Positions 17,106 to 63,830 of a stretch of DNA of 64,000 nucleotides are shown in pieces. The position numbers and the translations under genes were made by a program. Origin of the DNA: Candidatus Micrarchaeota archaeon (GTDB taxonomy: Archaea > Micrarchaeota > Micrarchaeia > Norongarragalinales > SBBD01); the NCBI GenBank assembly GCA_018819225.1, contig JAHJQN010000005.1, forward strand, positions 35,286 through 99,285. The letters run 5' to 3'. The notes under the pieces were generated by a model that worked only from the letters and a program-made list of their open reading frames with translations, did not search any database and was not told the origin of the DNA. Positions within the stretch are counted from its first letter, which is position 1; each line of letters starts with the position of its first letter.

Positions 17106-18920
17106 CTACTCCATCATTTGCTTGAGTTGCCCCAAATAATCGGAGCGGTCTTGCCGGAACTGTTTGCGGGCATGCGCATCATCGCGTTTTTTGCGGAAGG
17201 AAACGAACATGGCGGCCGCCGCCACAATCGAAACACCGATGATGGCCGCGACCTCCGGTGGAAAACGCGCGATCAACGTGCTCACGGAATCGTCTTCGCG
17301 TTTGCGCACTTGAACGGGCGTGCTTTTCGCATTCAAACCGTCTTCGGTAAACAAACGGAACGTGAACAAGTGCGACCCCGCGCTTCCAACGGGCGGGGTG
17401 ACCCGGAAACCAAACCGCGTAATGCCTCTCGGGAGCAATGGTTTTTGGATTTCCAAGGGCTGTAATTCAAAATCAACGGGCACTTCCAGCGCGGCTTGCA
17501 CGTGCAGCGGTTGAATCCCGGAATAAAACACGTCAACCGCCACTTCCCCTTCTTCCCCCTCGAATAATTCGGGGGCGAACAATCCTTTGACTTCCACGAA
17601 TTCCAAGAGGCGCAACTTTTCCTGCGTGACCGCTACCTGGTCGGTCTGCCAATCCACGTACGTGGAATACGTGGGGAGGACAAGGGGAAGGACGTACGTG
17701 GCGTACGCGATTTCGTTGGGATTCAAATTCAAAAACTCCCATCGAACCTTTAACGGCCGTTCTTGAATGATTTCTCCGGGTTTATCGAGAAAACGAATGT
17801 CTTGCGAGGTCACATCCATGAGAGTGGGAATGGATTCGTAGACGTTGACGACGGGTATGGCTTTCGTGCCCAGATTGCGCACGTTGAGCGCGACCGTGGT
17901 TTCGCGCGCGAGCCGATCAATGCGGATGTGTCGCAATACGACGGGGTAGGGGTATTCGCGCGGAAAGCTCTTGACGCGCAATACCATGTATTCAATCGTA
18001 GGGCGCGTGCTATGAACCTCTAATTTCAGTAAATAATCGCCGGCCAACGCGTAATTCGGAACGGATAAACCGAAATTGATGATGCGTTCTTCTCCGGGGC
18101 GTAACGTCGTTTCCTTGGGCTGGAACGATACCCAGGATTCGGAAGTCCCGGTCACGAGCAAGCGAATGGTTTTCTCGGTTCCGCCGTCGTTGCGAATCGT
18201 AAAGGATTCGAATGCGCTCGTGCCCGCCAAGAGCTCTCTGAGAACCGTGTGGCGCAAGAACTTGATGTCCCCTTCAACGGGAATGATTTCATCCGGCAGG
18301 GGTTTCGGGGGCGTGAAATTATCGGTGGGCGGAATGAAAAATCCTCCGGACGAGCCACCCCCTCCCGGGGATTGCGGAGGAGGAGTCACCGGCGGATTCA
18401 CGACGGAAAAGCATTCAGAAAACACTTCGCTTTGGTTCGCGTAATCGTCGTAATACGCGGTGGCGTTCGCGCAGTATATGCCGATGGGAAGCGTGCCCGT
18501 GCTCCAGCTCTTGATGAGAATCACTTGCGAAAAACGCGAGATGAGCGTCGGCGAGTAATTGAACGAGTCCACGAGGTCATCCGTCGTGTTGAAGATGAGG
18601 ACTTCCGCGGTCGCGTTCGCTTGAACGGTTCCGTTGTTGTAAAGCGTGAGAACGAAGTCGCCGCTGGCCCCTGAATAAATGGGATCGGGAGCTACGGTCA
18701 GGTTTTGGATCGTGACGTTCGTGTAATTAGGCAAGTCGGACCGGAACCACGTCAGCGTGTCCGCGTAATCGGCGTGAGCGAGACTACTCAATAAGAAAAG
18801 AATAAAAAATAAAAAAAAGGTTTCATGGCTCACGTGACCTCGAAGAACATCGTGTACCATGTTTGTCCGATGCTTCCGCCTCCCGTGCCGATGTAGTCCA
18901 GTTTGTACTTGTAGAACCAT
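17106..18920 (-). CDS. Cell-surface protein with C-terminal TM anchor
   Basis: Signal peptide (likely start near 18860, FFLFFILFLLSSLAHA); many N-x-S/T sequons; PPVTPPPQSPGGGG linker; C-terminal TM plus basic tail. Confidence 0.6.
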   Translation of the reverse strand: MVLQVQTGLHRHGRRKHRTNMVHDVLRGHVSHETFFLFFILFLLSSLAHADYADTLTWFRSDLPNYTNVTIQNLTVAPDPIYSGASGDFVLTLYNNGTVQANATAEVLIFNTTDDLVDSFNYSPTLISRFSQVILIKSWSTGTLPIGIYCANATAYYDDYANQSEVFSECFSVVNPPVTPPPQSPGGGGSSGGFFIPPTDNFTPPKPLPDEIIPVEGDIKFLRHTVLRELLAGTSAFESFTIRNDGGTEKTIRLLVTGTSESWVSFQPKETTLRPGEERIINFGLSVPNYALAGDYLLKLEVHSTRPTIEYMVLRVKSFPREYPYPVVLRHIRIDRLARETTVALNVRNLGTKAIPVVNVYESIPTLMDVTSQDIRFLDKPGEIIQERPLKVRWEFLNLNPNEIAYATYVLPLVLPTYSTYVDWQTDQVAVTQEKLRLLEFVEVKGLFAPELFEGEEGEVAVDVFYSGIQPLHVQAALEVPVDFELQPLEIQKPLLPRGITRFGFRVTPPVGSAGSHLFTFRLFTEDGLNAKSTPVQVRKREDDSVSTLIARFPPEVAAIIGVSIVAAAAMFVSFRKKRDDAHARKQFRQDRSDYLGQLKQMME

Positions 18921-19789
18921 TCATCGTTCTTCGCCCCGGACGGCGGCGTGATGTTGATTCCGACGATGTATCGGCCGGGTTTCACGTCCTTAGCCCTTAC
19001 TTTAACCGTAATCTTTTGGGTCCAACCCGATTGGAAGACGGGAAATGCCGGTTCCAGCAAGACGTCTACCGGATCCACTGAAACGTCAAAGTACTTTTTG
19101 GTTTCCTCGGGGTCGACGTCGACGGTACGCGTGCCATCCGCGAACTCGCTTAACTTGAGCTCGCCGTGCGGCGGGTATTCAACCGAGAAGGCCATGCCCT
19201 GATAGGTCTGCACGAGCCACGTGGAATGGATGAAGAAATGCGTTTCGTATTCGTCGTTTCGTCTGGATAGCACGATGACTTCGCTCGGGAACGTTCCGTA
19301 ACCGACTGCGGCCCAGCGGTCCGTCGGAGGATACTGGTACAATTTGCACCCGCTTTCATCGAACATGGGATACCATTCGGGCTGTTTCCAATAATTTTCC
19401 CCGAAATAGTTGGTGTCCGAAATTTTTCCGAGGTGGAACAACAGCTTTTGGACGTAGAAATCTTCAGGGAACGGAGGGACCTCGGCATACACTTGGGGAG
19501 GCAAGTCGCATCGCCGCTTGGCGATCTCGAACGGATCTTCCTGGTATTGCTGCAGGCGAACCATCAAGTCCGGGTACTTGGTCCAGAACGGATCCTCGGT
19601 CGGCGTCGGGGTTGTGGCCACTGTTATGGCCGTTGGAATGATTGTAGGCACCGGAGCCGGAGGAGCAAACGCGTCCTGCAACGGTCCCAAGAAATACAGT
19701 GCGAGCACCGCGATCACGGCCAATCCAATCCACACTTCCTTGCCCATTTTCTTTCCGTGATGCGACGTGCTATGAGGCTTCTTCTTCAT
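18830..19789 (-). CDS. N-terminally membrane-anchored extracellular protein
   Basis: His/Lys-rich N-terminus, one TM segment, PT-rich linker, then a 240-aa globular domain. Confidence 0.6.
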   Translation of the reverse strand: MKKKPHSTSHHGKKMGKEVWIGLAVIAVLALYFLGPLQDAFAPPAPVPTIIPTAITVATTPTPTEDPFWTKYPDLMVRLQQYQEDPFEIAKRRCDLPPQVYAEVPPFPEDFYVQKLLFHLGKISDTNYFGENYWKQPEWYPMFDESGCKLYQYPPTDRWAAVGYGTFPSEVIVLSRRNDEYETHFFIHSTWLVQTYQGMAFSVEYPPHGELKLSEFADGTRTVDVDPEETKKYFDVSVDPVDVLLEPAFPVFQSGWTQKITVKVRAKDVKPGRYIVGINITPPSGAKNDEWFYKYKLDYIGTGGGSIGQTWYTMFFEVT

Positions 19790-19809: not shown

Positions 19810-20418
19810 TTAGTTCGCGTTCGTGCTGTTGTGCGTGATCAAACGCTGTTCCACGAGACCGGATACGGACGTGAAGTTCGCGTACAACGTCACGTTAATC
19901 GAACAACATGCGGGTGAAGCCGTGGTATTGAGTTCCTGGAAAATCATTGCTTCCATGGAATTGTTCAACGGAATCTCTGGACCAATAGTTACCGCGTTGT
20001 TACCCACTCCACTTGCAGAACTGTTCACGCCCACCGTAATACCCGATGGAAGCGATGAATTGAATATGAGCGTCATGCTGAGATTCACGTTTCCGGCATT
20101 CGTGTACTGGAAAATAGGTACCGCTGCTCCGGCTTGACACGAACCGCCGAATGCGGTGGTCAAACACGGTTCGACTCGCGTGCACGTTCCGGTGACGCAG
20201 GTAAAGTTAATGTCTGCAGTTGCGGGGCCGGGATCGGATGCACTCGAAGCATTCGCTTCACCGGCTCCCAACGGTAATGTAATCGTGAAACCCGTGTCCA
20301 CCGGGACATTGAAGATGACGGCGGTATTCGCCCATTCCGCTAACGGCATGGCAGCCAACGCAATAAATGCGGCAACAAAAACAATCAAGCGAAAGTGTTT
20401 CCAAACCATTGCGTCCAC
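19810..20418 (-). CDS. Secreted Cys-containing glycoprotein
   Basis: Signal peptide; 8 Cys; multiple sequons. Confidence 0.55.
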   Translation of the reverse strand: MDAMVWKHFRLIVFVAAFIALAAMPLAEWANTAVIFNVPVDTGFTITLPLGAGEANASSASDPGPATADINFTCVTGTCTRVEPCLTTAFGGSCQAGAAVPIFQYTNAGNVNLSMTLIFNSSLPSGITVGVNSSASGVGNNAVTIGPEIPLNNSMEAMIFQELNTTASPACCSINVTLYANFTSVSGLVEQRLITHNSTNAN

Positions 20419-20496: not shown

Positions 20497-23400
20497 CTAT
20501 TGTGATGCGGTGGCGTTGTGAGTAATTTCCACCCACTCGGCCATGCCTCCGCTGACGCCGCTGAAATCAGCCCAGCACCATAACTGTTCCCCTTCGCCCG
20601 TTGGAACCGTCGTATTCACGAGGAACGGATCCGCCGCACTCGTATTGGTATTAATGGTGTGAGAGCTTCCGTAACCTGCGCCGGAATTGTGACATTTGAG
20701 GGTCACCCCCGTTGGAGGCGTTGCATTCAAGTAAATACTCCAATTGAGATTTGCATCCCCCGTATTATTGAAAATAAAGAACGGATTATCATTGTTTTGA
20801 CAATTCGCGGTATATCCGACGCATGGATGCACCTCCGTTTGATCGCCCGTCAAACTCGTGAAGTTCATGTCCAAGGTAAATGCAGGCGTGTAGTTGATGT
20901 GCAAGGCTGGTTTATTATTTAGTGAGTGGTTTGCAGAAGAGATCACAAAACGTTCTGTTCCTGAATCGGGCACAGATACCGCACCGAAGATGGAAATCCA
21001 TTCCGGGTGATTCAATATTTGGGCATGGGCGATCGCTGGATCCAACGTGAAGTTCTTGTAACCGGTACTCTCGAATAATGCGGCAGTGGAATTCCAGGTA
21101 TTCGAAGCATCATTAGAATGCATGGCTTTACAAGATATTAACTGCACGCGACTGACAACATGACCACCCAAAAGTCCATTGTTTTCTCCTGGATTGGTAG
21201 CAGTGGAAACATATAATTCTGCTAGAATTTCATTGAAAATAATTCCGGATCCATTCGTTAATCCGGTTTCAAAATCCATATGCCATTTTCCGGATGCCCC
21301 TATCCCAAGGGTTTGGTTGGCTTCAATCAATTCATCTCCTTCCGGCGTACAAGCCGCATTTCCTGCATTTCCATACTCTGCAATATCAAAACTGGGGTAA
21401 ACCGCTATAGTTCGAGAATAGTTCGCAGTAGAACCAACGGCTCCCCTTCCGGGAATCGTTAACGTAAACGATGTGACGGCTGGCACGGTCCAAGGCATAC
21501 GGATGTGCACCTCGCGGTTCGTGCTCAACGTGATGTTTCGAATCGATGAATTGTCGGTATAACCCGGCGAACTGGCATTGAAGTAATGAGGCGTGTAATC
21601 CGTTTGCGTGTTCGTTCCGTCCGGCGCGTTGACGATCGTAAAAGCAGTGAGGGTCTGCCAAGGAGTCATTCCGTTCGAGTCCGTGGTGATTCCCGTGAGC
21701 ATTTCCGTGCCAGACGTGTAATTGGTGATCGAAACCGTGGCGCCGTTCATGGGATCGTCGGTCACGTTGGTGACATTCACCAACAAAAACCATTGCCGCG
21801 TGTAATTGTTTTCATTTCCCCCGAACGTGACCAGGAGGTCATCAAACGAACTGTTGCGGAACACGTGGCCTTGCGAACCGCTGGAGAGGAATAAATCCTT
21901 GTTCTGCGTGTCACGGATGGTGTTGTTGATCCACAGGCTGTTGTTGGAGGCCACGATATGGATGCTGTTGTTGGAATGGTTTTGAATCGTGTTGTTCGTG
22001 AAATTGTTGAAATCGGAGTTGATGATCCTCACGCCCCGCGGTCCTCCCGTAAAGTTGTTGTTCTCGACGACGTGGTCGGTACGCGTTCCCGCAGAAACGG
22101 ACCAAATACCTAATGCTTCCCCGTAACCGTCGCCATTATCTTTCATTTCCTCCACTGTATTGTTCCGAACGACGCACCACGCATTGTCGCCGGTCCCCTC
22201 GTAACCCAGCGCCATGCCGTACGGAGACTGGTTGACGTAATTGTTTTCTATCGTGCAGTTATCGGAGTGGCCGTAGAAGAGGACGGAAAAATCAGCTCCT
22301 GACGGCGTGTGAACCGTGTTGTTTCGGAAAATGGTGTTGTTGGACGAGTCCTTGATTTGGATGGCTCCATAACCCTGCGTGCTGAAATTGTTGTTTCGGA
22401 TGGTCGTATCGTATGCGAACGAAGCCAATACGCCATGCCGATATCCGTAAAAGGAACAGTTCGCGACGTCGGTTTCGTTAAAGTTTGTAATCGATACATG
22501 CGTTCCAACGCGTCCTACTCGGCTGATCGTATGGCCGTCGCAGTCGAGCGTCAACGTATTTGCCGCGATGGTGAAACAGGATCCGGGGGGGGCCGTCAGG
22601 TCGTTGTTCAACAAGACGCTTTGTTTAATGGTTCCGCAACTCCCGTTTACAATCGCCGTAAAATTGTTTTTGTCAGTATCCGTTAAACCCCACTCGTCGG
22701 ATCCGATGCAATTCCAGATGTATTTATTCGGAGGCAACCCAAAAACATTAAACGCGGTATTCGTCGCATTCTGTAAACCCGTAGCGCTCGTATTCGAGAA
22801 GTTGGCGGCCCAAACTCCGGAAAAGTTGCCCCATAACGTTAGATTTTGAGGAGTTCCGGTGTCCACATCGATACTGCAGTTGAACGTAACCATCGCTTGG
22901 GCACTGCTGGAAACCGTGGTATTATCGGTCGCAGGACTAATCAATACCACGTCAGGGGGCTCGGAGTAATTGACATATAGATAAACCTGCGATAACGCAT
23001 CTTGGGAAGAGATGGGATCCCGATCCTTACGATCTTCATCCTTGATGCCAAATCCGAAGAAATTAGTTCCAAGTCCATTTTCCATGTCCGTATGAGCTGC
23101 GTCTATAAGGGTATAATTCGTCCACTGTAACCCTGGAACCGAAGCCACTCCGGTATGATAAATAGTCGAAGAATTCACGTAATCCCACGGCGAATCCGAA
23201 CTACCGCAGGAAAAACTGGATAACGGTTTGTTGATCGCGCGAATGGTATGGTTACTCGCATGAACAGTATTCCAGTACAACGAAGCCGTGATGTTGAAAA
23301 TTTGTGCAGTACCTGGAATGCTGGTGGTGTCCCAGTCAATTGCAGGCCGGTAATCAATATCGTTATAATAGGTTGCAGTCGCATTCGTGCACGAAGTACT

Positions 23401-25056
23401 CGTAAGATTTCCTACGATAAGAGAAAAAGCGCTGTCGACAGCACAACCGTAATAATTGTCGACAGTCGTACAACCAATACCCGAATAATTTATGGTGCGC
23501 CAGAACGTGGTATCGTTATTGTTTTCAGCAGCGGCATATCGCACAAACGGATCCAAGAATAACTGTTTGCCTTGCAAATTGGAGATGCGCAGCTCCGTTT
23601 GATTCGTCATCGAGAGCGAAAAGCCTTCCTCAATCAAGTCGTTGAAATCCAAAACGATATCGCCCGGTAACATGATGGAATGATCCTCGACGTAAACCGT
23701 GCTCCAATCCATTTCATCCGATGAGAGCCGTAATCCGATGGACTGAATCTTGTCGTGAATGGGTTGCGGCGAATCCCGGAAATCCAAAGCGAACTTCGGA
23801 TGTTTTTCGTTGCGCACCTGACCGCGGAAGTTAACCCCTAATCCCTGCTTGATTTCGTGAACGCTTTGATCGCGATTCTCGAATACGATGAAGGGATCCA
23901 GTTTCACCGTGTAATTGGGGGCTTGCAGTTGGAAGTGCGGGTTTTCCCACGTAAACGAAATGTATTCGTTGAAGCCCATCCACTTTCCGAAGAAGAACAC
24001 GTTGACGGGTTTCTGATACAAAATCGCGGTCTTGTATCCGTTGCCGCTTTCGATCACGTCCGCTTTCGCGCCAACGGCTTTCCCCGTCACCGGCAAGTCG
24101 GATTCGAATAATTTGACTCCGCGCGGTTCAATTAATGCGGGAACAAGTGTGGGCATAGGAGTGGCATTTGCGGTGGGCGACGCGCTAACAGATGGCGTGG
24201 GGGTCATCGTGGCGTTCGGGGTTGGAGTCATGGTCGCGTTTGGAGTCGGCGTGGGAGCCGGTGTGGAAAACGAATACCCGTCTTCCCGCGAGCAGTTTTC
24301 AGAATTACAGCTTTCAACTGAGAAGAAATACTGCGTGGATGCCAGGAGACTGGAAAGGGTTAGCGAATGCGTTTGCACGAGCGAGGAATCCGATTCAATG
24401 AGACTGAGATCGATGTCTTGACCGTAATAGACCGTGGAATTCGCGGGCTGGTCGGTATCCCAGGAGATGAGCGCGCTGCTGGTTTGGGGTTCTGCAGTCA
24501 CATTATCGATGATGGGAAAATCAGGGTAAGGCGTTGCCGTAGGCGTTGGAGTCGGAGTCGCTTCCAATTCGCAGGCGGTAGCGCAACACGTGCCGGAGTC
24601 GGAAGCATTGAGCCATTGATCGCCAGGACAAATTTCTCCCTCTAAACAAATCGTTCCGTTTTGTTCCGCGCAAGTCGGTTCAGGGGTCGGAGTCGGTTCT
24701 TCCGTGGGAGTAGGTGTCGGGGATTCGCAGGCAACCGCACAACACAAACCGGTATCCGAAGCGTTGAGCCATTGATCGCCAGGACAAATTTCTTCCTCAG
24801 AACAAACGAACCCTCCTTGTTCCGCGCACGTGGGATCGGGAGTGGGCGTGGGCGCTTCAGTTGCAGTAGGAGTAGGGGTTTCCGTTGGAGTCGGCGTAGG
24901 AGTAGCAGTAGGAGTAGGCGTTTCCGTTGGAGAAGGAGTAGGGGTGGGCGTAGGATCGTCGGCCCCGGCAACCGCAGCCAGTAAAAAGACAATAACCACT
25001 AACAATCCAATGTTCGCGAGCAGGAAACTCCCACGGAAACGGGAGGGAAACGGCAT
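20497..25056 (-). CDS. Giant surface protein (1519 aa): signal peptide, PT-repeat linkers, two 6-Cys modules, right-handed beta-helix region
   Basis: TPTPTP linkers; duplicated CAEQxGxxCxExEICPGDQWLNASDxGxCCAxACE module; many N-rich pseudo-repeats (NNN[FT]xxxxxG) as in PbH1/pectate-lyase-like folds; more than 100 N-x-S/T sequons. Confidence 0.8.
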   Translation of the reverse strand: MPFPSRFRGSFLLANIGLLVVIVFLLAAVAGADDPTPTPTPSPTETPTPTATPTPTPTETPTPTATEAPTPTPDPTCAEQGGFVCSEEEICPGDQWLNASDTGLCCAVACESPTPTPTEEPTPTPEPTCAEQNGTICLEGEICPGDQWLNASDSGTCCATACELEATPTPTPTATPYPDFPIIDNVTAEPQTSSALISWDTDQPANSTVYYGQDIDLSLIESDSSLVQTHSLTLSSLLASTQYFFSVESCNSENCSREDGYSFSTPAPTPTPNATMTPTPNATMTPTPSVSASPTANATPMPTLVPALIEPRGVKLFESDLPVTGKAVGAKADVIESGNGYKTAILYQKPVNVFFFGKWMGFNEYISFTWENPHFQLQAPNYTVKLDPFIVFENRDQSVHEIKQGLGVNFRGQVRNEKHPKFALDFRDSPQPIHDKIQSIGLRLSSDEMDWSTVYVEDHSIMLPGDIVLDFNDLIEEGFSLSMTNQTELRISNLQGKQLFLDPFVRYAAAENNNDTTFWRTINYSGIGCTTVDNYYGCAVDSAFSLIVGNLTSTSCTNATATYYNDIDYRPAIDWDTTSIPGTAQIFNITASLYWNTVHASNHTIRAINKPLSSFSCGSSDSPWDYVNSSTIYHTGVASVPGLQWTNYTLIDAAHTDMENGLGTNFFGFGIKDEDRKDRDPISSQDALSQVYLYVNYSEPPDVVLISPATDNTTVSSSAQAMVTFNCSIDVDTGTPQNLTLWGNFSGVWAANFSNTSATGLQNATNTAFNVFGLPPNKYIWNCIGSDEWGLTDTDKNNFTAIVNGSCGTIKQSVLLNNDLTAPPGSCFTIAANTLTLDCDGHTISRVGRVGTHVSITNFNETDVANCSFYGYRHGVLASFAYDTTIRNNNFSTQGYGAIQIKDSSNNTIFRNNTVHTPSGADFSVLFYGHSDNCTIENNYVNQSPYGMALGYEGTGDNAWCVVRNNTVEEMKDNGDGYGEALGIWSVSAGTRTDHVVENNNFTGGPRGVRIINSDFNNFTNNTIQNHSNNSIHIVASNNSLWINNTIRDTQNKDLFLSSGSQGHVFRNSSFDDLLVTFGGNENNYTRQWFLLVNVTNVTDDPMNGATVSITNYTSGTEMLTGITTDSNGMTPWQTLTAFTIVNAPDGTNTQTDYTPHYFNASSPGYTDNSSIRNITLSTNREVHIRMPWTVPAVTSFTLTIPGRGAVGSTANYSRTIAVYPSFDIAEYGNAGNAACTPEGDELIEANQTLGIGASGKWHMDFETGLTNGSGIIFNEILAELYVSTATNPGENNGLLGGHVVSRVQLISCKAMHSNDASNTWNSTAALFESTGYKNFTLDPAIAHAQILNHPEWISIFGAVSVPDSGTERFVISSANHSLNNKPALHINYTPAFTLDMNFTSLTGDQTEVHPCVGYTANCQNNDNPFFIFNNTGDANLNWSIYLNATPPTGVTLKCHNSGAGYGSSHTINTNTSAADPFLVNTTVPTGEGEQLWCWADFSGVSGGMAEWVEITHNATASQ

Positions 25057-25242
25057 GCGCGTATTACAGCGAAGTCATATTAAACCTTTTACAGAACCGG
25101 CGGGAAAAGAAACGCAAGTCTTTTAAAGCAGAAAGCGCATTGAAAGTGTTCCTTTGGGGAGTAAGCCGGTGCGGCTTGAGAACCAATTCAACTTGTTCTT
25201 GATTTCCTCATCGATTGCGCATTCATTATCAGGTCATAGTTT

Positions 25243-25548
25243 ATGGACGTCAACAAATCCCTTCGATTGGTCGTGGATACGGGCAAAGTCGTGCTGGGCA
25301 CGGACCGCGCCATGAAAACGGCGTTGCTGGGAAACGCGAAATTGATCGTGATTGCAAGTAATATGGCGAGGGATTCGCGACGCGATCTCGAGCAATACTG
25401 TAGGCTCGCCGGCATTCCGACCATGGAATTCAATGGGACGAGCATCGAACTCGGAACCGTTTGCGGGAAACCGTTCCCGATTTCTGCATTGACGGTTCTC
25501 GAGGAAGGGGAATCCGGTATCTTGAAGGAGAGAGGCGACGCGTCATGA
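25243..25548 (+). CDS. rpl30e: 50S ribosomal protein L30e (eL30)
   Basis: GKVVLGTDRAMK ... IVIASN eL30 signature. Confidence 0.85.
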   Translation: MDVNKSLRLVVDTGKVVLGTDRAMKTALLGNAKLIVIASNMARDSRRDLEQYCRLAGIPTMEFNGTSIELGTVCGKPFPISALTVLEEGESGILKERGDAS

Positions 25549-25973
25549 CGAAGCTCAGCATGGAAGACATTCAGAAAATGAACGCGATGGAGCAGATAAC
25601 GGGAGCGAAAGCGCAAGACGTCGTGGACTTGCCGGACCGCATCATATTCATTGTTCCCAAGCAGGATTTGGGCAAGGCCATAGGAAAAGGCGGAAGTAAC
25701 GTGTCTCGTTTGAAGCAAGGCCTCGGCAAACCCGTGGAAATCGTGGAAGCCGCCGACGAAGAAAAAGCGTTTTTTGCCGCGTTGTTTAAACCCGCGGTGG
25801 TTGATGATTATAGCGTGAATGAAAACGATGGCAAGCGTTCGTTGGACGTGCGCGTTCAGAACAAGGAGAGGGGCATTGCCATAGGACGAAATGGGGAAAA
25901 AATCAAGCGAGCGAAATTGCTTGGAAAACGTTACTACGGATATGAAGACGTGCGCATCGTGACGCGAGGGTGA
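25546..25973 (+). CDS. nusA: Archaeal NusA-like transcription factor (KH domains)
   Basis: Two KH GxxG motifs ([22 protein letters not shown]); canonical position between rpl30e and rps12. Confidence 0.85.
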
Positions 25974-25977
25974 AAGC

Positions 25978-26406
25978 ATGGCAAGAGGAGAATTTGCTGG
26001 AAGGATTCTGAAATCGCGCCGCAAGCAAGCGCGGTGGTTGCGAAAGAAGTGGAAGCGCAAGGCATTGGGCTTGAAATTCAAGTTCGATCCGTTGGAAGGC
26101 GCGCCCCTCGCTAAAGGAATTGTTTTGAAAAAGGAAGGCAAGGAGCAGAAGCAACCGCACTCGGGAATCGTGAAAACCGTTAAAGTTCAATTGATCAAGA
26201 ACGGAAAGAAAGTGGGCGCGCATTGTCCGCGCGACAAAGCCATTAATTTCATCGACGAGCACGACGAAGTGACGATTGCGGGGCTCGGCGGATCGCAGAG
26301 AGGTCAGATGGGTTCGATTCCGGGCATTCGGTATAAAGTCGTCGCCGTAAACGGGATTTCGCTCGACGAACTGCGCAAGGGCAAGAAAGAGAAGCCGAAG
26401 AGGTAG
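25978..26406 (+). CDS. rps12: 30S ribosomal protein S12 (uS12)
   Basis: Highly conserved uS12 core (PKKPNSA-type region, here [13 protein letters not shown]) and basic tails. Confidence 0.9.
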
Positions 26407-26412
26407 AGAGGC

Positions 26413-27021
26413 ATGAACCCAGACGTCAAACTGTTCGGAAAATACGATTTCAACGTGCAAGTGCAGGACGTGAGTCTCGCGAAGTACATTAGCCTGAAGC
26501 CGGTGCGCTACCCGCATACGTTCGCCCGTCACGGAAACAAGCAATTCGCGAAAGGAAAAGTCAATCTCGTGGAACGCTTGGTGAACAAGCTGATGCGCGG
26601 CGGAACCGGAGAAAAAATGGGGGGGAAAATCATTCGCACGCACGGTAAATTGCAGGGCAAGAAGACGCGCATGATCAAAACCGTGGAGAAAGCGTTCGCG
26701 GAAGTGCAAAAGCGCACGAAACAGAATCCCGTGCAAGTGCTCGTTCAAGCCGTCGAAAACTCGGCACCGCGGGAAGATATTACGCGCGTGCGGTTCGGAG
26801 GAATTAGTTACCAGCTCGCCGTCGACATTTCAGCCCAACGCCGGTTGGATTTATCGCTTCGAAATATTGCGTTAGCGGCGATCATCAGCTCGTTCAAGAA
26901 CCCGTTGACGCTCACCGAAGCGCTTACGAACGAAATCGTGTTGGCAGCCACCAATGATCCCAACTCGTTCTCGATCAAGCGCAAGAACGAAGTCGAACGG
27001 GTCTCGCGAAGCGCGCGTTAA
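26413..27021 (+). CDS. rps7: 30S ribosomal protein S7 (uS7)
   Basis: uS7 fold signature (LVERLVNKLMRGG...); 202 aa. Confidence 0.9.
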   Translation: MNPDVKLFGKYDFNVQVQDVSLAKYISLKPVRYPHTFARHGNKQFAKGKVNLVERLVNKLMRGGTGEKMGGKIIRTHGKLQGKKTRMIKTVEKAFAEVQKRTKQNPVQVLVQAVENSAPREDITRVRFGGISYQLAVDISAQRRLDLSLRNIALAAIISSFKNPLTLTEALTNEIVLAATNDPNSFSIKRKNEVERVSRSAR

Positions 27022-52474: not shown

Positions 52475-52547
52475 GGGGCTGTGGGGTAACCTGGTATCCT
52501 GCTAGCTTCGGGAGCTAGTGATCTGAGTTCAAATCTCAGCAGCCCCA
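52475..52547 (+). tRNA. tRNA-Pro(CGG), intron-less
   Basis: GGGGCTG acceptor; anticodon stem CTAGC/GCTAG with loop TTCGGGA; T-arm CTGAG-TTCAAAT-CTCAG; CCA not encoded. Confidence 0.85.
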
Positions 52548-52555
52548 CTCTCACG

Positions 52556-52656: not shown

Positions 52657-53667
52657 ATGGATATGGTTCGGAAATCTATTTGGATTTTTCTCTTGTTTTC
52701 AATCGCAGTTTTTGGATCCGTCAATGCCATCAACGAAACGTGTTCAAATTTGCATGGCACCCCCAACCCCGCAGAAAGCGCTCAATCCGTCGCCATCTCT
52801 TTCTTTTTTACAGGAAACGCTACGGGAACCATAACCTGCAACGGTGCTATAGACTCGAATCCACCGGTGAGCTGCTACGGTAATTCCTCTTCATGTACCG
52901 CGAACTGTGTTTGGGGGTCCGGAGGCACGTATCCAGTGGAAGCGGATTATGGATCGGCTGCGTGCAATCCATTTAATCAAACCATTAACGCGGAGGCAAC
53001 GCCGACACCGACTCCCACTCCTTCCCCCACGCCTTGGCCCACTTGTTCGAACATGAATGGAACCGTTTGTGCATTAGAAGAAATTTGTCCTGCAGATCAA
53101 TGGCTTAACGCATCGGATTCCGAGCGTTGTTGCGCGGTGGATTGTGAAGCGAATGCGACGCCAACCCCTTCCCCTACCGTGACGCCGACGCCTACGCCTC
53201 CAGGGAACGCAACCGAGTCCCCGACACCCTCGCTTACGCCCACTCCCACACTAACGCCGATTCCAACGAACACGCCGACACCGAGTCCGACGAATACGCC
53301 GGTGCCCACCGAACCCCATGTCGTTCCTTCGACGGCCACACCGTCAAGCCCAGTGCCTCCAGCTTTAGAGGAAGAAATTGAGGAATTGAGGGATCAAGTG
53401 GATGCGTTACCGGAAGGCAACGATAAGCAAGAGCTGTTCATCCTGCTTAATGAAGCGGAAGAAAACATGCAAGCCCAACAAACCAGCAAGGCGCGCGCCC
53501 TGATTCTTCAAGCGCGACTAAAAATTGCGGAAGCCGGTACGTACAAAACGGATCGCTCGACACCCATTTCATATGCGGAAATTGCGTTTGTCGGCGTGCT
53601 CGTGGCAGGAGTCGTGTGGGCGGTATCCGGGCTCATTATCCGCCGAGGAAAAATCAAACAAGCCTAG
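52657..53667 (+). CDS. Surface protein: signal peptide, Cys-rich N-domain, one copy of the 6-Cys DQWLNASD module, PT-rich stalk, C-terminal TM anchor
   Basis: Module at 53044-53148, nucleotide-level similar to the two copies inside the 1519-aa protein; TPTPSPT linkers; C-terminal AFVGVLVAGVVWAVSGLII plus RRGKIKQA. Confidence 0.7.
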   Translation: MDMVRKSIWIFLLFSIAVFGSVNAINETCSNLHGTPNPAESAQSVAISFFFTGNATGTITCNGAIDSNPPVSCYGNSSSCTANCVWGSGGTYPVEADYGSAACNPFNQTINAEATPTPTPTPSPTPWPTCSNMNGTVCALEEICPADQWLNASDSERCCAVDCEANATPTPSPTVTPTPTPPGNATESPTPSLTPTPTLTPIPTNTPTPSPTNTPVPTEPHVVPSTATPSSPVPPALEEEIEELRDQVDALPEGNDKQELFILLNEAEENMQAQQTSKARALILQARLKIAEAGTYKTDRSTPISYAEIAFVGVLVAGVVWAVSGLIIRRGKIKQA

Positions 53668-61240: not shown

Positions 61241-62203
61241 TTTTAAGCTAAATACTTAACCTGCGCGAATTTGCGATTTGCGTAGCTGGTTGCTGTAGTC
61301 CCGGCGAATCGAAGCTCGTGCTATGACCGATTCCTTGAGCGGTCCCTTGATCTATGATAGGGCGTATTACGCTCCATTCCACTACAGCGGCCGATGGGAA
61401 TGTGAGCAATCGTTTTGAATCACGATTCACGTTCGACGGACGCGGACCTCAACGCCAAAATAAATCGTTTAGTTCTTTGCGACTCGTAATTCGCAATCAG
61501 TTAAATTCAGTACGGATTGCACACGCGCTCTTCCGAGAGGGAGAGTGGCGTGTAACACCAGTTGATCCTGCTGGAGGATATTGCTATCAGAATTCGACTA
61601 AGCCATGCAAGTCAGTGTTACCACCTGGTAACACGGCGAACGGCTCAGTAACGCGTACTTAACTTACCCTAGGCAGGCGAATAACTTCGGGAAACTGAAG
61701 GGAATACGCCGTAGGAAACAATTTCTGGAACGAAGTGTTTCTTAAAGTGCTCCGAATTGTAGGAGTTACGGCCTAGGATGGGAGTGCGTCTGATTAGGCT
61801 GTTGGTGGGGTAAAGGCCCACCAAACCGATAATCAGTAGGAGCTATGGGAGTAGAAGCTCCGAGATGGGCACTGAGACAAGGGCCCAAGCCCTACGGGGT
61901 GCAGCAGGCGCGAAATTTCCGCAATGCGCGCAAGCGTGACGGGGGAATTCTGAGTGCTTCTCTTACGAGAAGCTTTTGCTTAGCTTGAATCGCTAGGCGA
62001 ATAAGGAGTGGGTAAATCCTGTGCCAGCCGCCGCGGTAATACAGGTAGTCCAAGTGATATCCACGAATACTGAGTCTAAAGCGCTCGTAGCGGGTTCGGC
62101 AAGTTCTCTGTGAAATCTTCAAGCTCAACTTGAAGGCGTGCAGGGAATACTACCAGACTTGGGAGTGGGGGAGGCCAAGGGTACTTTAGGGGGAGGAGTA
62201 AAA

Positions 62204-62260
62204 CGACCTTTTCTTTCAAAAAGAAAAGCTCGACCAAAAGAAATCGACATGTCGTACTCA
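62204..62260 (+). repeat. 57-nt palindromic insertion inside 16S (between GGAGTAAAA and TCCTGTAATCC); a copy of the element next to tRNA-Leu
   Basis: cgaccttttctttcaaaaagaaaagctcgaccaaaagaaatcga... versus 11113-11160 (rc) acgaaccttttctttcgaaaagaaaagcttcaccaaaagaaaatga... Confidence 0.5.
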
Positions 62261-62477
62261 AAATCCTGTAATCCTTAAAGGACCTTCAGTAGCGAAGGCG
62301 CTTGGCCAAAACACGTCCGACCGTGAGGAGCGAAGGCCAGGGGAGCAAATCGGATTAGATACCCGAGTAGTCCTGGCAGTAAATGATGCAGACTAGGCAT
62401 TGCAATGGTTTCGAACTGTTGCAGGGCCGTAGGGAAGCTGATAAGTCTGCCACTTGGGGAGTACGGTCGCAAGACTT

Positions 62478-62518
<41 letters not shown>

Positions 62519-63061
62519 TGCTGCGGTTCAATTGGACTCAACGCCGGGAAACTCACCAGGAGAGACAGCAGAATGAAGCTCAGGCTAAAGACCTTAGCTG
62601 ACAAGCTGAGAGGTGTTGCATGGCCAGCGTCAGTTCGTGCCGTGAGGTGTCAAGTTAAGTCTTGCAACGAACGAGATCTTCATCCACAGTTGCCAGTTTC
62701 GCGGTAACGCGGAGCGCACTCTGTGGAAACTGCCTGCGTTAAGTAGGAGGAAGGAGAAGGCGACGCTAGGTCTGTATGGCCCGAATCTCCTGGGCCACAC
62801 GTGGCATACAATGGCGGAGACAATGGGTTCCGACGCCGAAAGGCGAAGGTAATCTCCGAAACTCCGTCTAAGTCCGGATTGGGGGCTGAAACTCGTCCCC
62901 ATGAAGCTGGAATCCCTAGTAATCGCGTGTCATCATCGCGCGGTGAATATGTCCCCGCTCCTTGCACACACCGCCCGTCAAGTCAACCAAGCGAGGCTTT
63001 AGTGAGGCTTGGTCTTCGGATCAAGTCGAGCTAGAACTTTGTAAGGTGGATTAAGTCGTAA

Positions 63062-63830
63062 GAACGTTGCGACCTCGGATCTGTGAGGATTTGAGAAAAA
63101 ATCTGCTATATGCTGGAAACCCCGAGCATCTCAGGCTACCATCGGAAACGACGCTTCGGAATGAATATCATTCTCGAAGAAATTCAGTTGGTGAAAATGT
63201 TTTGAGTGCGGGCAATCAGCAGGGAAGTCGGCGCGAAAGCGCTTGACCCCTCAGAGACTACACGCAGACTTCTATAGTGCAAGAGAACATGAAGGCATAT
63301 CTCCTTGGCGCGCTACACGATGGCTCCAATCACGGTAACACGTACCGAATCGTCCAAAAAGAAGAAGAATACGTCCGCTGGATTGCGGATGAACTTCATC
63401 AAATGGGCATTTCGGCATGGGTTTATCGGGAAGGAGCTGAACGACATTTATTCGTCGTCGAGTTCTCGAAAAGTCGGTTATCGGAAATCAAGATCAATAG
63501 TCTTGAAGAGAAAACTGAATACATTCGAGGATACTTCGATGCCGAAGGTAGCGTACCATTGAAATCGGGAGCCAGAATGTACATTTATTTCTGCCAAAAA
63601 GACCGAAAGGATCTGGAAGAAGTAAAAACATTCTTGGAAGAACTTGGAATCGTTTGTGGAAAAACCCACAATCCAACGTTCAAAGAACCTGATTATTGGA
63701 GATTCTTCATTGGATGTAAATCCTACAAAGCATTTGCATCTAAAATTGGTTCTCGCCATCCTCGAAAGAGGAAAGTACTCGAGAAGATGATATAGTCCAT
63801 GCCGCGCAGCGATGCGTGGAAGAACATGAA
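63062..63830 (+). mobile_element. 16S rRNA intron near the 3' end (after AAGTCGTAA), carrying a homing endonuclease ORF
   Basis: The 16S consensus AAGTCGTAACAAGGTAGCCGTAGGGGAACC is restored when 63062-63830 is removed. Confidence 0.8.
63277..63795 (+). CDS. LAGLIDADG-family homing endonuclease (double-motif, monomeric type)
   Basis: YLLGALHDGS (motif 1) and IRGYFDAEGS (motif 2) roughly 95 aa apart; 172 aa. Confidence 0.85.
   Translation: MQENMKAYLLGALHDGSNHGNTYRIVQKEEEYVRWIADELHQMGISAWVYREGAERHLFVVEFSKSRLSEIKINSLEEKTEYIRGYFDAEGSVPLKSGARMYIYFCQKDRKDLEEVKTFLEELGIVCGKTHNPTFKEPDYWRFFIGCKSYKAFASKIGSRHPRKRKVLEKMI

Follow-up and report, generated by a model that had tools for sequence, protein, structure and literature searches.

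What kind of protein element is the short six-cysteine segment that recurs in two surface proteins of a Candidatus Micrarchaeota archaeon, and what might it do there? The segment lies in the 64,000-nucleotide stretch of contig JAHJQN010000005.1 presented above (the window), where a first reading of the DNA, hereafter the original prediction, had described three copies of a 35-residue module, two in tandem in a giant protein of 1519 residues and one in a protein of 336 residues. The module had been taken for a small binding or recognition domain, and a profile search and a structure prediction had been proposed as checks. The present analysis identifies it as a domain family that had not been characterised before but is of a well-known type, the small cysteine-rich extracellular module; the family is widespread in surface proteins of DPANN archaea.

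The module in the window

The three copies are as follows.

24724..24828, minus strand: module copy 1, CAEQGGFVCSEEEICPGDQWLNASDTGLCCAVACE, amino acids 77-111 of the giant protein (translation; profile match at residues 75-112 of P0001; AlphaFold2 predicted local distance difference test, pLDDT, 94.3)
24568..24672, minus strand: module copy 2, CAEQNGTICLEGEICPGDQWLNASDSGTCCATACE, amino acids 129-163 of the giant protein (translation and profile match; tandem duplicate of copy 1)
53044..53148, plus strand: module copy 3, CSNMNGTVCALEEICPADQWLNASDSERCCAVDCE, amino acids 130-164 of the 336-residue open reading frame (ORF) 52657..53667 (translation, six-frame scan and profile match)

Translation places all three copies where they had been predicted, with the pair of the giant gene on the minus strand; the plus-strand translation of 24568-24828 is nonsense with stops, and the coding strand is the reverse one (ORF 20497..25056, minus). 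The cysteines of the giant protein are residues 77, 85, 91, 105, 106 and 110 in copy 1 and 129, 137, 143, 157, 158 and 162 in copy 2. The spacing of the window copies is C-x7-C-x5-C-x13-CC-x3-C (7,5,13,0,3), so that the first interval given in the original prediction, C-x6-C, has to be corrected. Along with the six cysteines, all three copies possess G8, I/V10, E15, L22, A24-S25 and D26, and copies 1 and 2 are flanked on both sides by linkers rich in proline and threonine (PT linkers). A six-frame regular-expression scan of the 64-kb window revealed no fourth copy.

A family of extracellular domains

The three copies were made into a profile, and an HMMER search of 1.84 billion representative proteins at a cut-off of E≤1e-3 uncovered a large family. 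There were 86 matches, 15 of them at E≤1e-10, and the two carriers of the window scored E=1.8e-43 and 6.3e-20, well outside what chance would give. Two highly repetitive proteins (P0008 and P0009) are false positives, while the remaining 84 are genuine carriers with near-full-length matches, amounting to 159 copies in total.

Conservation was evaluated over 175 unique copies, for which the protein matches were pooled with the genome matches described below. The six cysteines are invariant, and the spacing is 7,5,12,0,3 in 132 copies and 7,5,13,0,3, as in the window, in 22. The family core reads TC-x4-G-x-[IV]-C-x3-[EQ]-x-C-x-G-x(1,2)-[WLF]-[LI]-x-A-S-D-[ST]-x2-CC-x3-C. Conserved non-cysteine positions are G8 (97%), D26 (94%), L/I/V22 (88%), T/S27 (87%), E/Q15 (83%), T2 (81%), A24 (73%), I/V10 (73%) and S25 (70%), as well as G19. 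Positions 9 and 21 are often occupied by an aromatic or hydrophobic residue, position 21 being W in 46% of the copies and otherwise L, I, Y or F. The core ICPxDQWLNASD had been called strictly conserved, which is true within the window but does not extend to the family: besides the variable W21, the asparagine creating the N-A-S sequon occurs in only 22% of the copies, and it is replaced even in the Micrarchaeota paralogues P0012 and P0014 (LPAGD, LPAED). By the pooled alignment, DQWLNASD and its sequon are a lineage variant and not a defining feature of the family.

An independent test was made at the DNA level on 185,579 species genomes, using a degenerate pattern that encodes only C-x-G-x-W-[LIV]-x-x-S-D-[ST]-x2-CC-x3-C. 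It gave 39 loci in species-representative genomes, and the module was confirmed by the profile in 38 of them; L030 (Terriglobia) is a chance match. The upstream C-x7-C-x5 half, which the pattern does not specify, is present in 33 of the 38 loci, the other five being cut by a contig end or by the alignment. The pattern thus confirms the family independently of the profile search. The 38 host genomes are mainly of DPANN archaea (Iainarchaeota, Woese-, Pace-, Aenigmat-, Nano- and Altiarchaeota); the others belong to Methanomicrobiales, Archaeoglobus, ANME-1, Thermoplasmatales, Halobacteria, several Patescibacteria and one metagenome-assembled genome (MAG) of Myxococcales. The same pattern had no match in the IMG/VR viral contigs.

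Other searches were less productive. A scan of genome contigs with the three-copy alignment gave 71 pattern matches, none of which was confirmed. Word-indexed protein searches, a method ill-suited to so short a module, returned nothing with the PT-flanked tandem region, the source protein itself included, and nothing with a 145-row module alignment. A synthetic query of ten modules retrieved only 15 proteins by the same method, all 'hypothetical' or named after other motifs. The module is very probably a genuine autonomous extracellular domain family.

Predicted fold

Structure prediction likewise gave a confident autonomous fold. When copy 1 of the giant protein was modelled by AlphaFold2 with a 145-row family alignment, the mean pLDDT was 94.3, and none of the five models fell below 90. 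Strands are predicted for F/V ahead of C2, for I ahead of C3, for W-L and for the CC pair, and P-G-D forms a one-turn element; the DSSP assignment contains short beta strands and no helix of four or more residues. A second run, on P0081 with a 68-row alignment, arrived at the same arrangement of strands, with the module scoring pLDDT 94-95. The confident prediction is thus of an autonomously folding, small three-stranded beta unit of about 36 residues, most likely held by three disulfides, as assumed from the extracellular location and the CC motif. Foldseek found no match in the PDB at E≤10 and nothing significant in BFVD, although fold searches are insensitive at 44 residues.

A variant with eight cysteines is observed at residues 448-485 of P0046 (YTCEGRGGDICCGEDALCPGNYISASDSRCCCDQTC), where the extra pair stands directly after C2 and directly before C4. 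The strands near C2 and C4 may therefore be spatially adjacent; the variant suggests that the positions next to these two cysteines are close in space, a hint that could be of use in assigning the topology.

Comparison with named families

The module had not been recognised as a named domain, and this holds in the Pfam, NCBIfam and PDB libraries searched. For the three window copies, Pfam at E≤10 gave one stray match of one copy (Yop-YscD_ppl_2nd, E=0.083). Among 146 copies of the family, WAP was matched by eight (best E=0.024), three families by three copies each, one by two and six by one, nothing being significant after multiple testing. No Pfam model spans the module in 38 full-length carriers, NCBIfam has no family for it, and the PDB sequence profiles gave no match at E≤10. 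A description of the module was not found in the literature searched.

EGF-like and anaphylatoxin-like domains, which the original prediction had named as possible known families, resemble the module in being extracellular, of about 35-40 residues with six cysteines, and shuffled among surface proteins; in the libraries searched the module maps onto neither. EGF domains have C-x-C near the end and no CC pair, whereas the module has 7,5,12/13,0,3 spacing with an adjacent CC; a single copy of the 146, and none from the window, matches an EGF model (EGF_Hmr-1, E=0.0015). ANATO is helical with CC at both ends, in contrast to the predicted beta-rich module with a single CC and a different cysteine framework, and no Pfam match to it was obtained at E≤10.

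WAP (PF00095), the only Pfam family matched by more than three of the 146 copies, is also a small extracellular cysteine-rich domain with a basic residue before CC-x3-C. It possesses, however, eight cysteines and four disulfides against the six cysteines of the module, and its eight matches are all below the cut-off. An hhalign comparison with the elafin WAP domain gave a probability of 2.9% over eight columns covering CC-x3-C only, and Foldseek on the PDB gave no WAP fold match. Hevein/CBM18 is similarly small and cysteine-rich, with G-G and aromatic residues, and hevein binds carbohydrate; it has eight cysteines rather than six, no Pfam match, and an insignificant hhalign probability of 10% over 21 columns. 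In the classical inhibitor cystine knot the CC pair is formed by cysteines 3 and 4, whereas in the module it is formed by 4 and 5, and toxin families show only sporadic weak Pfam matches (3 of 146 copies, E≥0.1).

The closest parallel in design is the fungal carbohydrate-binding module CBM1. About 36 residues long, it is a beta mini-domain stabilised by cysteines, has exposed aromatic residues and a G-G...C...G..C flavour, and is joined by glycosylated linkers rich in Pro, Thr and Ser to either end of polysaccharide-active enzymes, sometimes in several copies. CBM1 differs in having four cysteines (two disulfides) instead of six, another spacing and a Q-C terminus, and in being eukaryotic whereas the module family is archaeal and Patescibacterial. 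None of the 146 copies matches Pfam CBM_1, the hhalign probability against the T. reesei Cel7A CBM1 is 1.5%, and Foldseek on the PDB gave no structural match to it. CBM1 is the best analogy for a possible mode of working.

Two further short cysteine-rich extracellular motifs, Cu-binding_MopE (PF11617) and Dicty_CTDC, co-occur with the module in P0063, P0065, P0069, L015, P0012 and P0015. They occupy separate stretches, and their models never cover the module.

Carriers across the family

An N-terminal hydrophobic segment (signal or anchor) is present in 73 of the 84 carriers, many of which have a lipobox-like SGC. By these features the carriers are extracytoplasmic, i.e. secreted or anchored multidomain proteins; in the source databases they are named 'hypothetical' or after other domains. 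The partner domains include GH26 'beta-mannanase', an apiosidase-like glycoside hydrolase, HepII_C, pectate-lyase-like, Beta_helix/NosD, CARDB, Laminin_G_3, FG-GAP, Big_9/cadherin/PKD, Peptidase_S8, C25 and Metallophos with dockerin. The Beta_helix/NosD/DUF1565/pectate-lyase-like group is recurrent (the giant protein, P0014, P0042, P0076, L008, L015 and L031). More than one copy is found in 37 of the 84 carriers, with spacers typically of 1-8 residues. The position of the module varies from next to the lipobox through interdomain to the extreme C-terminus, and some carriers, such as P0003, P0005 and P0007, have distal C-terminal arrays.

A subfamily of lipoproteins of about 110 residues, absent from the window, consists of a lipobox SGC, a linker, one module (KTCAELNGYxCxVGxECPGEWLDASDTFSCCSKxC) and a conserved C-terminal tail (LTIEPFExxPENEELGDV). 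Its members are L003, L006, L007, L011, L020, L022, L032, L034, L036 and L038, and also P0064 and P0081, and they are highly similar across Archaeoglobus, ANME-1, Methanomicrobiales, Halobacteria, Thermoplasmatales, Aenigmatarchaeota and a Nealsonbacteria MAG. The tail reaches a pLDDT of only 64-66 in the AlphaFold2 run on P0081; packing of the tail on the module is therefore unsupported. At nine of ten loci, the lipoprotein gene abuts or overlaps a gene for a conserved secreted all-helical protein of about 350 residues (FPVLDRQVEIRQAHLKW...RDLQV), for which Pfam has no family; an example is the pair L038:3062-3538 (minus) and L038:2007-3068 (minus). The two genes form a conserved two-gene cassette.

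Possible role of the module

The reading put forward here, with a probability of roughly 0.45, is that the module acts as an accessory binding unit resembling a CBM or an adhesin module. In DPANN archaea, and more rarely in Euryarchaeota and Patescibacteria, the module is a mobile unit from which secreted and membrane-anchored proteins are built. In the Micrarchaeota genome studied here, at least six surface proteins have the variant C-P-x-D-Q-W-L-N-A-S-D on PT-linker stalks, placed between the anchor in the membrane and the functional heads. In the binding role, the conserved face [W/L/F]-[L/I]-x-A-S-D-[S/T], together with E15 and G19, might be presented to a glycan or a cell-surface ligand, tandem copies adding avidity, and the module would thereby keep beta-helix, glycoside-hydrolase, CARDB or LamG heads on the substrate or the host envelope.

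Binding is proposed because the module occurs in promiscuous architectures with polysaccharide-active or adhesive heads on PT linkers, and because it is multiplied in tandem and placed at distal termini. Its eleven conserved non-cysteine positions, a number beyond what a disulfide scaffold by itself would seem to require, point the same way. Binding is also suggested by the cultivated Micrarchaeon Mia14, in which surface proteins of the CARDB, PKD and LamG types have been read as modules for adhesion or host interaction (PMC5498576).

Several points weigh against this proposal. No structural neighbour in the PDB speaks for binding, and neither hhalign nor Pfam relates the module to known CBMs. 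In a domain of this size, structural roles such as turn caps could account for all the conserved polar residues, and W21, the aromatic residue of the presumed face, is conserved in only 46% of the copies. The disulfides are themselves assumed from location and the CC motif, and many hosts are anaerobes, in which extracellular disulfide chemistry is less certain. Finally, the membrane-proximal position on PT stalks in the Micrarchaeota carriers suits a spacer equally well.

The last point leads to the strongest rival, namely that the module is a passive structural bead, a compact, protease-resistant, disulfide-locked spacer with no ligand of its own, which in combination with glycosylated PT linkers determines how long and how stiff the stalk is that carries catalytic or adhesive heads off the membrane or through the S-layer. 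PT linkers bracket the module in P0010, a paralogue from the same genome, as they do in both proteins of the window, and the window modules sit between the anchor and the remaining protein. Many lipoproteins have the module directly after the lipobox (e.g. P0024, P0025, P0027, P0040 and P0067), tandem copies with spacers of 1-8 residues could make rods, and in P0006, P0007 and L040 the module stands between repeated enzyme units. However, surface-type residues other than cysteine (E15, S25, D26 and T/S27) are strongly conserved across distant lineages and architectures, the distal C-terminal arrays of P0003, P0005 and P0007 lie between nothing, and the free-standing, single-module lipoproteins of about 110 residues are conserved across phyla. 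A passive bead is considered less likely than binding, but a real possibility.

The accessory binding reading also has a bolder form, which is rated as less likely than the bead. The family would then comprise miniature glycan- or envelope-binding domains specific to prokaryotes, in effect a new family of CBMs or adhesins whose three-disulfide fold is without precedent. With these domains, episymbiotic DPANN archaea and Patescibacteria would fasten beta-helix enzymes, glycosidases, proteases and adhesins to the surfaces of their hosts. The pair of small lipoprotein and helical protein would be a dedicated surface receptor system.

That the six cysteines coordinate zinc, copper or iron instead of forming disulfides is improbable. 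Such a metal-binding cluster would suit anoxic habitats, and many hosts are indeed anaerobes (Methanomicrobiales, ANME-1, Archaeoglobus and groundwater DPANN); the module also co-occurs with the 'putative metal-binding motif' Cu-binding_MopE in P0063, P0065, P0069 and L015, and P0030 is called 'putative metal-binding motif-containing protein' at NCBI. This name, however, stems from a separate MopE motif and not from the module. The adjacent CC with no histidine or other ligand pattern is a typical disulfide framework, a single metallothionein match (E=0.14) was recorded among 146 copies, and AlphaFold2 gives a confident beta mini-domain with no metal.

Still more improbable is a protease-inhibitor-like module, of WAP or another small-inhibitor type, shielding surface proteins or aimed at host proteases. 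The weak WAP matches of 8 of the 146 copies (best E=0.024), which arise from the shared K/R-CC-x3-C, speak for it, but they are insignificant after 146 tests, WAP requires eight cysteines against six in the module, and the hhalign match with the elafin sequence (2.9%) spans eight columns only. The module is moreover fused both to peptidases (S8, C25) and to numerous enzymes that are not proteases, which speaks against a dedicated inhibitor. The last alternative, that the module is not a domain and merely a chance or low-complexity repeat within PT-rich sequence, as its PT surroundings and tandem periodicity might suggest, is already refuted by E values of 1.8e-43 and 6.3e-20 against 1.84 billion proteins, by the invariant cysteine framework of 175 unique copies in non-PT contexts as well, and by the confirmation of 38 of 39 genome matches, 33 with the unspecified N-terminal half.

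History of the window copies

The original prediction had reported high nucleotide identity between the copies and had taken it to imply recent module shuffling; neither statement is borne out. Copies 1 and 2 are 78% identical at the nucleotide level and share 69% and 67% with copy 3, values about equal to the amino-acid identity. The synonymous sites are strongly diverged, with an NG86-type synonymous divergence (dS) of 0.62 for the tandem pair and of 1.27 and 2.75, near saturation, against copy 3. On this divergence, recent shuffling or gene conversion of whole modules is rejected.

Copies 1 and 2 constitute a tandem duplication of module plus linker with a period of 156 bp (Tandem Repeats Finder, 24602-24882, 79% matches). 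The 336-residue protein and P0010 share the module together with its flanks (...PTPxPTC...CEANA[TS]PTP...PGNAT...). The exchanged unit is therefore module plus linker, though the exchange was not recent.

A 26-nucleotide core (GAAATTTGTCCTG..GATCAATGGCT) is identical in all three copies, six degenerate codons included; under the codon usage of the giant gene the probability of this is about 1e-4, for a region picked post hoc. A short conversion tract or a constraint at the nucleotide level may lie behind it. The identical codon core for E-I-C-P-x-D-Q-W (GAAATTTGTCCTG..GATCAATGG) is located as follows.

24769-24795, minus strand: core in copy 1
24613-24639, minus strand: core in copy 2
53077-53103, plus strand: core in copy 3

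The carrier proteins and their surroundings

The features of the two carriers are listed below.

20497..25056, minus strand: carrier 1, 1519-residue surface protein, MBU1197689.1 'right-handed parallel beta-helix repeat-containing protein' (Pfam, NCBIfam)
24961-25056, minus strand: N-terminal hydrophobic anchor/signal of carrier 1, amino acids 1-32 (sequence)
24829..24960, minus strand: PT-rich linker from membrane anchor to module 1, amino acids 33-76, 44 residues (sequence)
24673..24723, minus strand: PT-rich linker between modules 1 and 2, amino acids 112-128, 17 residues (sequence)
24262-24504, minus strand: fn3-like region of carrier 1, amino acids 185-265 (Pfam/NCBIfam)
21850-22530, minus strand: right-handed Beta_helix/NosD region of carrier 1, amino acids 843-1069 (Pfam/NCBIfam)
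52657..53667, plus strand: carrier 2, 336-residue type-I membrane protein, MBU1197726.1 'hypothetical protein KJ765_04400'
53149-53364, plus strand: second PT linker of carrier 2, 72 residues (sequence)
53566-53640, plus strand: C-terminal transmembrane anchor of carrier 2, amino acids 304-328 (sequence)

Carrier 1 thus runs from the anchor or signal through PT linker, module, PT linker, module and PT linker to the fn3-like and beta-helix/NosD regions. It contains 66 N-x-S/T sequons as compared to 26.7 ± 4.3 in shuffled sequences; among five other sampled ORFs of the window, four have 0-0.45 sequons per 100 residues and one has 2.1. Carrier 1 is accordingly predicted to be a surface protein with heavy N-glycosylation. 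The module's own sequon is in line with this sequon-rich habit of the lineage and is not a feature of the family.

Carrier 2 consists of a signal peptide (amino acids 1-24), a six-cysteine region, PT linker, module, PT linker, helical segment and transmembrane anchor, and has no Pfam or NCBIfam match. Its upstream six-cysteine region (amino acids 25-111, 52729-52989, plus strand; cysteines 29, 61, 73, 80, 84 and 103) is unrelated to the module and likewise has no match in Pfam or NCBIfam. A tRNA-Pro(CGG) gene (52475-52548, plus strand) lies about 110 bp upstream of the carrier 2 gene.

The window is archaeal, with a 16S rRNA gene at 61555-63107, and its proteins are deposited as Candidatus Micrarchaeota archaeon on a metagenome contig of 709,457 bp. 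Four more carriers (P0010, P0014, P0020 and P0021) come from the same MAG or contig, giving a genome total of at least six carriers and at least seven copies. Two of them, P0014 (MBU1198097.1) and P0020 (MBU1198098.1), have consecutive accessions on the same 709-kb contig, outside the window, and similar N-termini (MRFP...YFVDIQN and MRFP...FYVNIQD), with DUF1565 or pectate-lyase-like matches. They are probably neighbouring paralogous genes, both with the module.

The giant gene is followed downstream, on its own strand, by three ORFs (19810-20418, 18830-19789 and 17106-18920, all minus), each with an N-terminal hydrophobic segment. A 202-residue ORF among them is a paralogue of the C-terminal domain of the giant protein (32% identity, E=2e-15), and a 604-residue one has Ig-like or NPCBM_assoc-like matches and a C-terminal transmembrane segment. 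The giant gene and these three ORFs look like a surface-protein gene cluster. On the other side, the minus-strand ORFs 25188-26141 and 25903-26748 are of odd composition with no family matches, and the latter overlaps, on the opposite strand, the gene of ribosomal protein S7 (26413-27021, plus; MBU1197693.1); the two are probably not genes.

Significance

DPANN archaea and Patescibacteria live attached to other cells, and the first candidates for host recognition are their surface proteins, which are large and for the most part lack annotation. The module recurs in such proteins: probes kept narrow on purpose still detected it in 84 representative proteins and 38 species genomes, and it offers an annotation handle for hundreds of 'hypothetical' proteins. 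With about 4 kDa it is a very small, predicted disulfide-rich scaffold, easily synthesised and assayed for ligands, and its predicted fold has no neighbour in the PDB. If the module is no more than a spacer, the catalogue of domains of unknown function gains one more ordinary entry; if the binding role is true, it would be a pointer to what these episymbionts hold on to.

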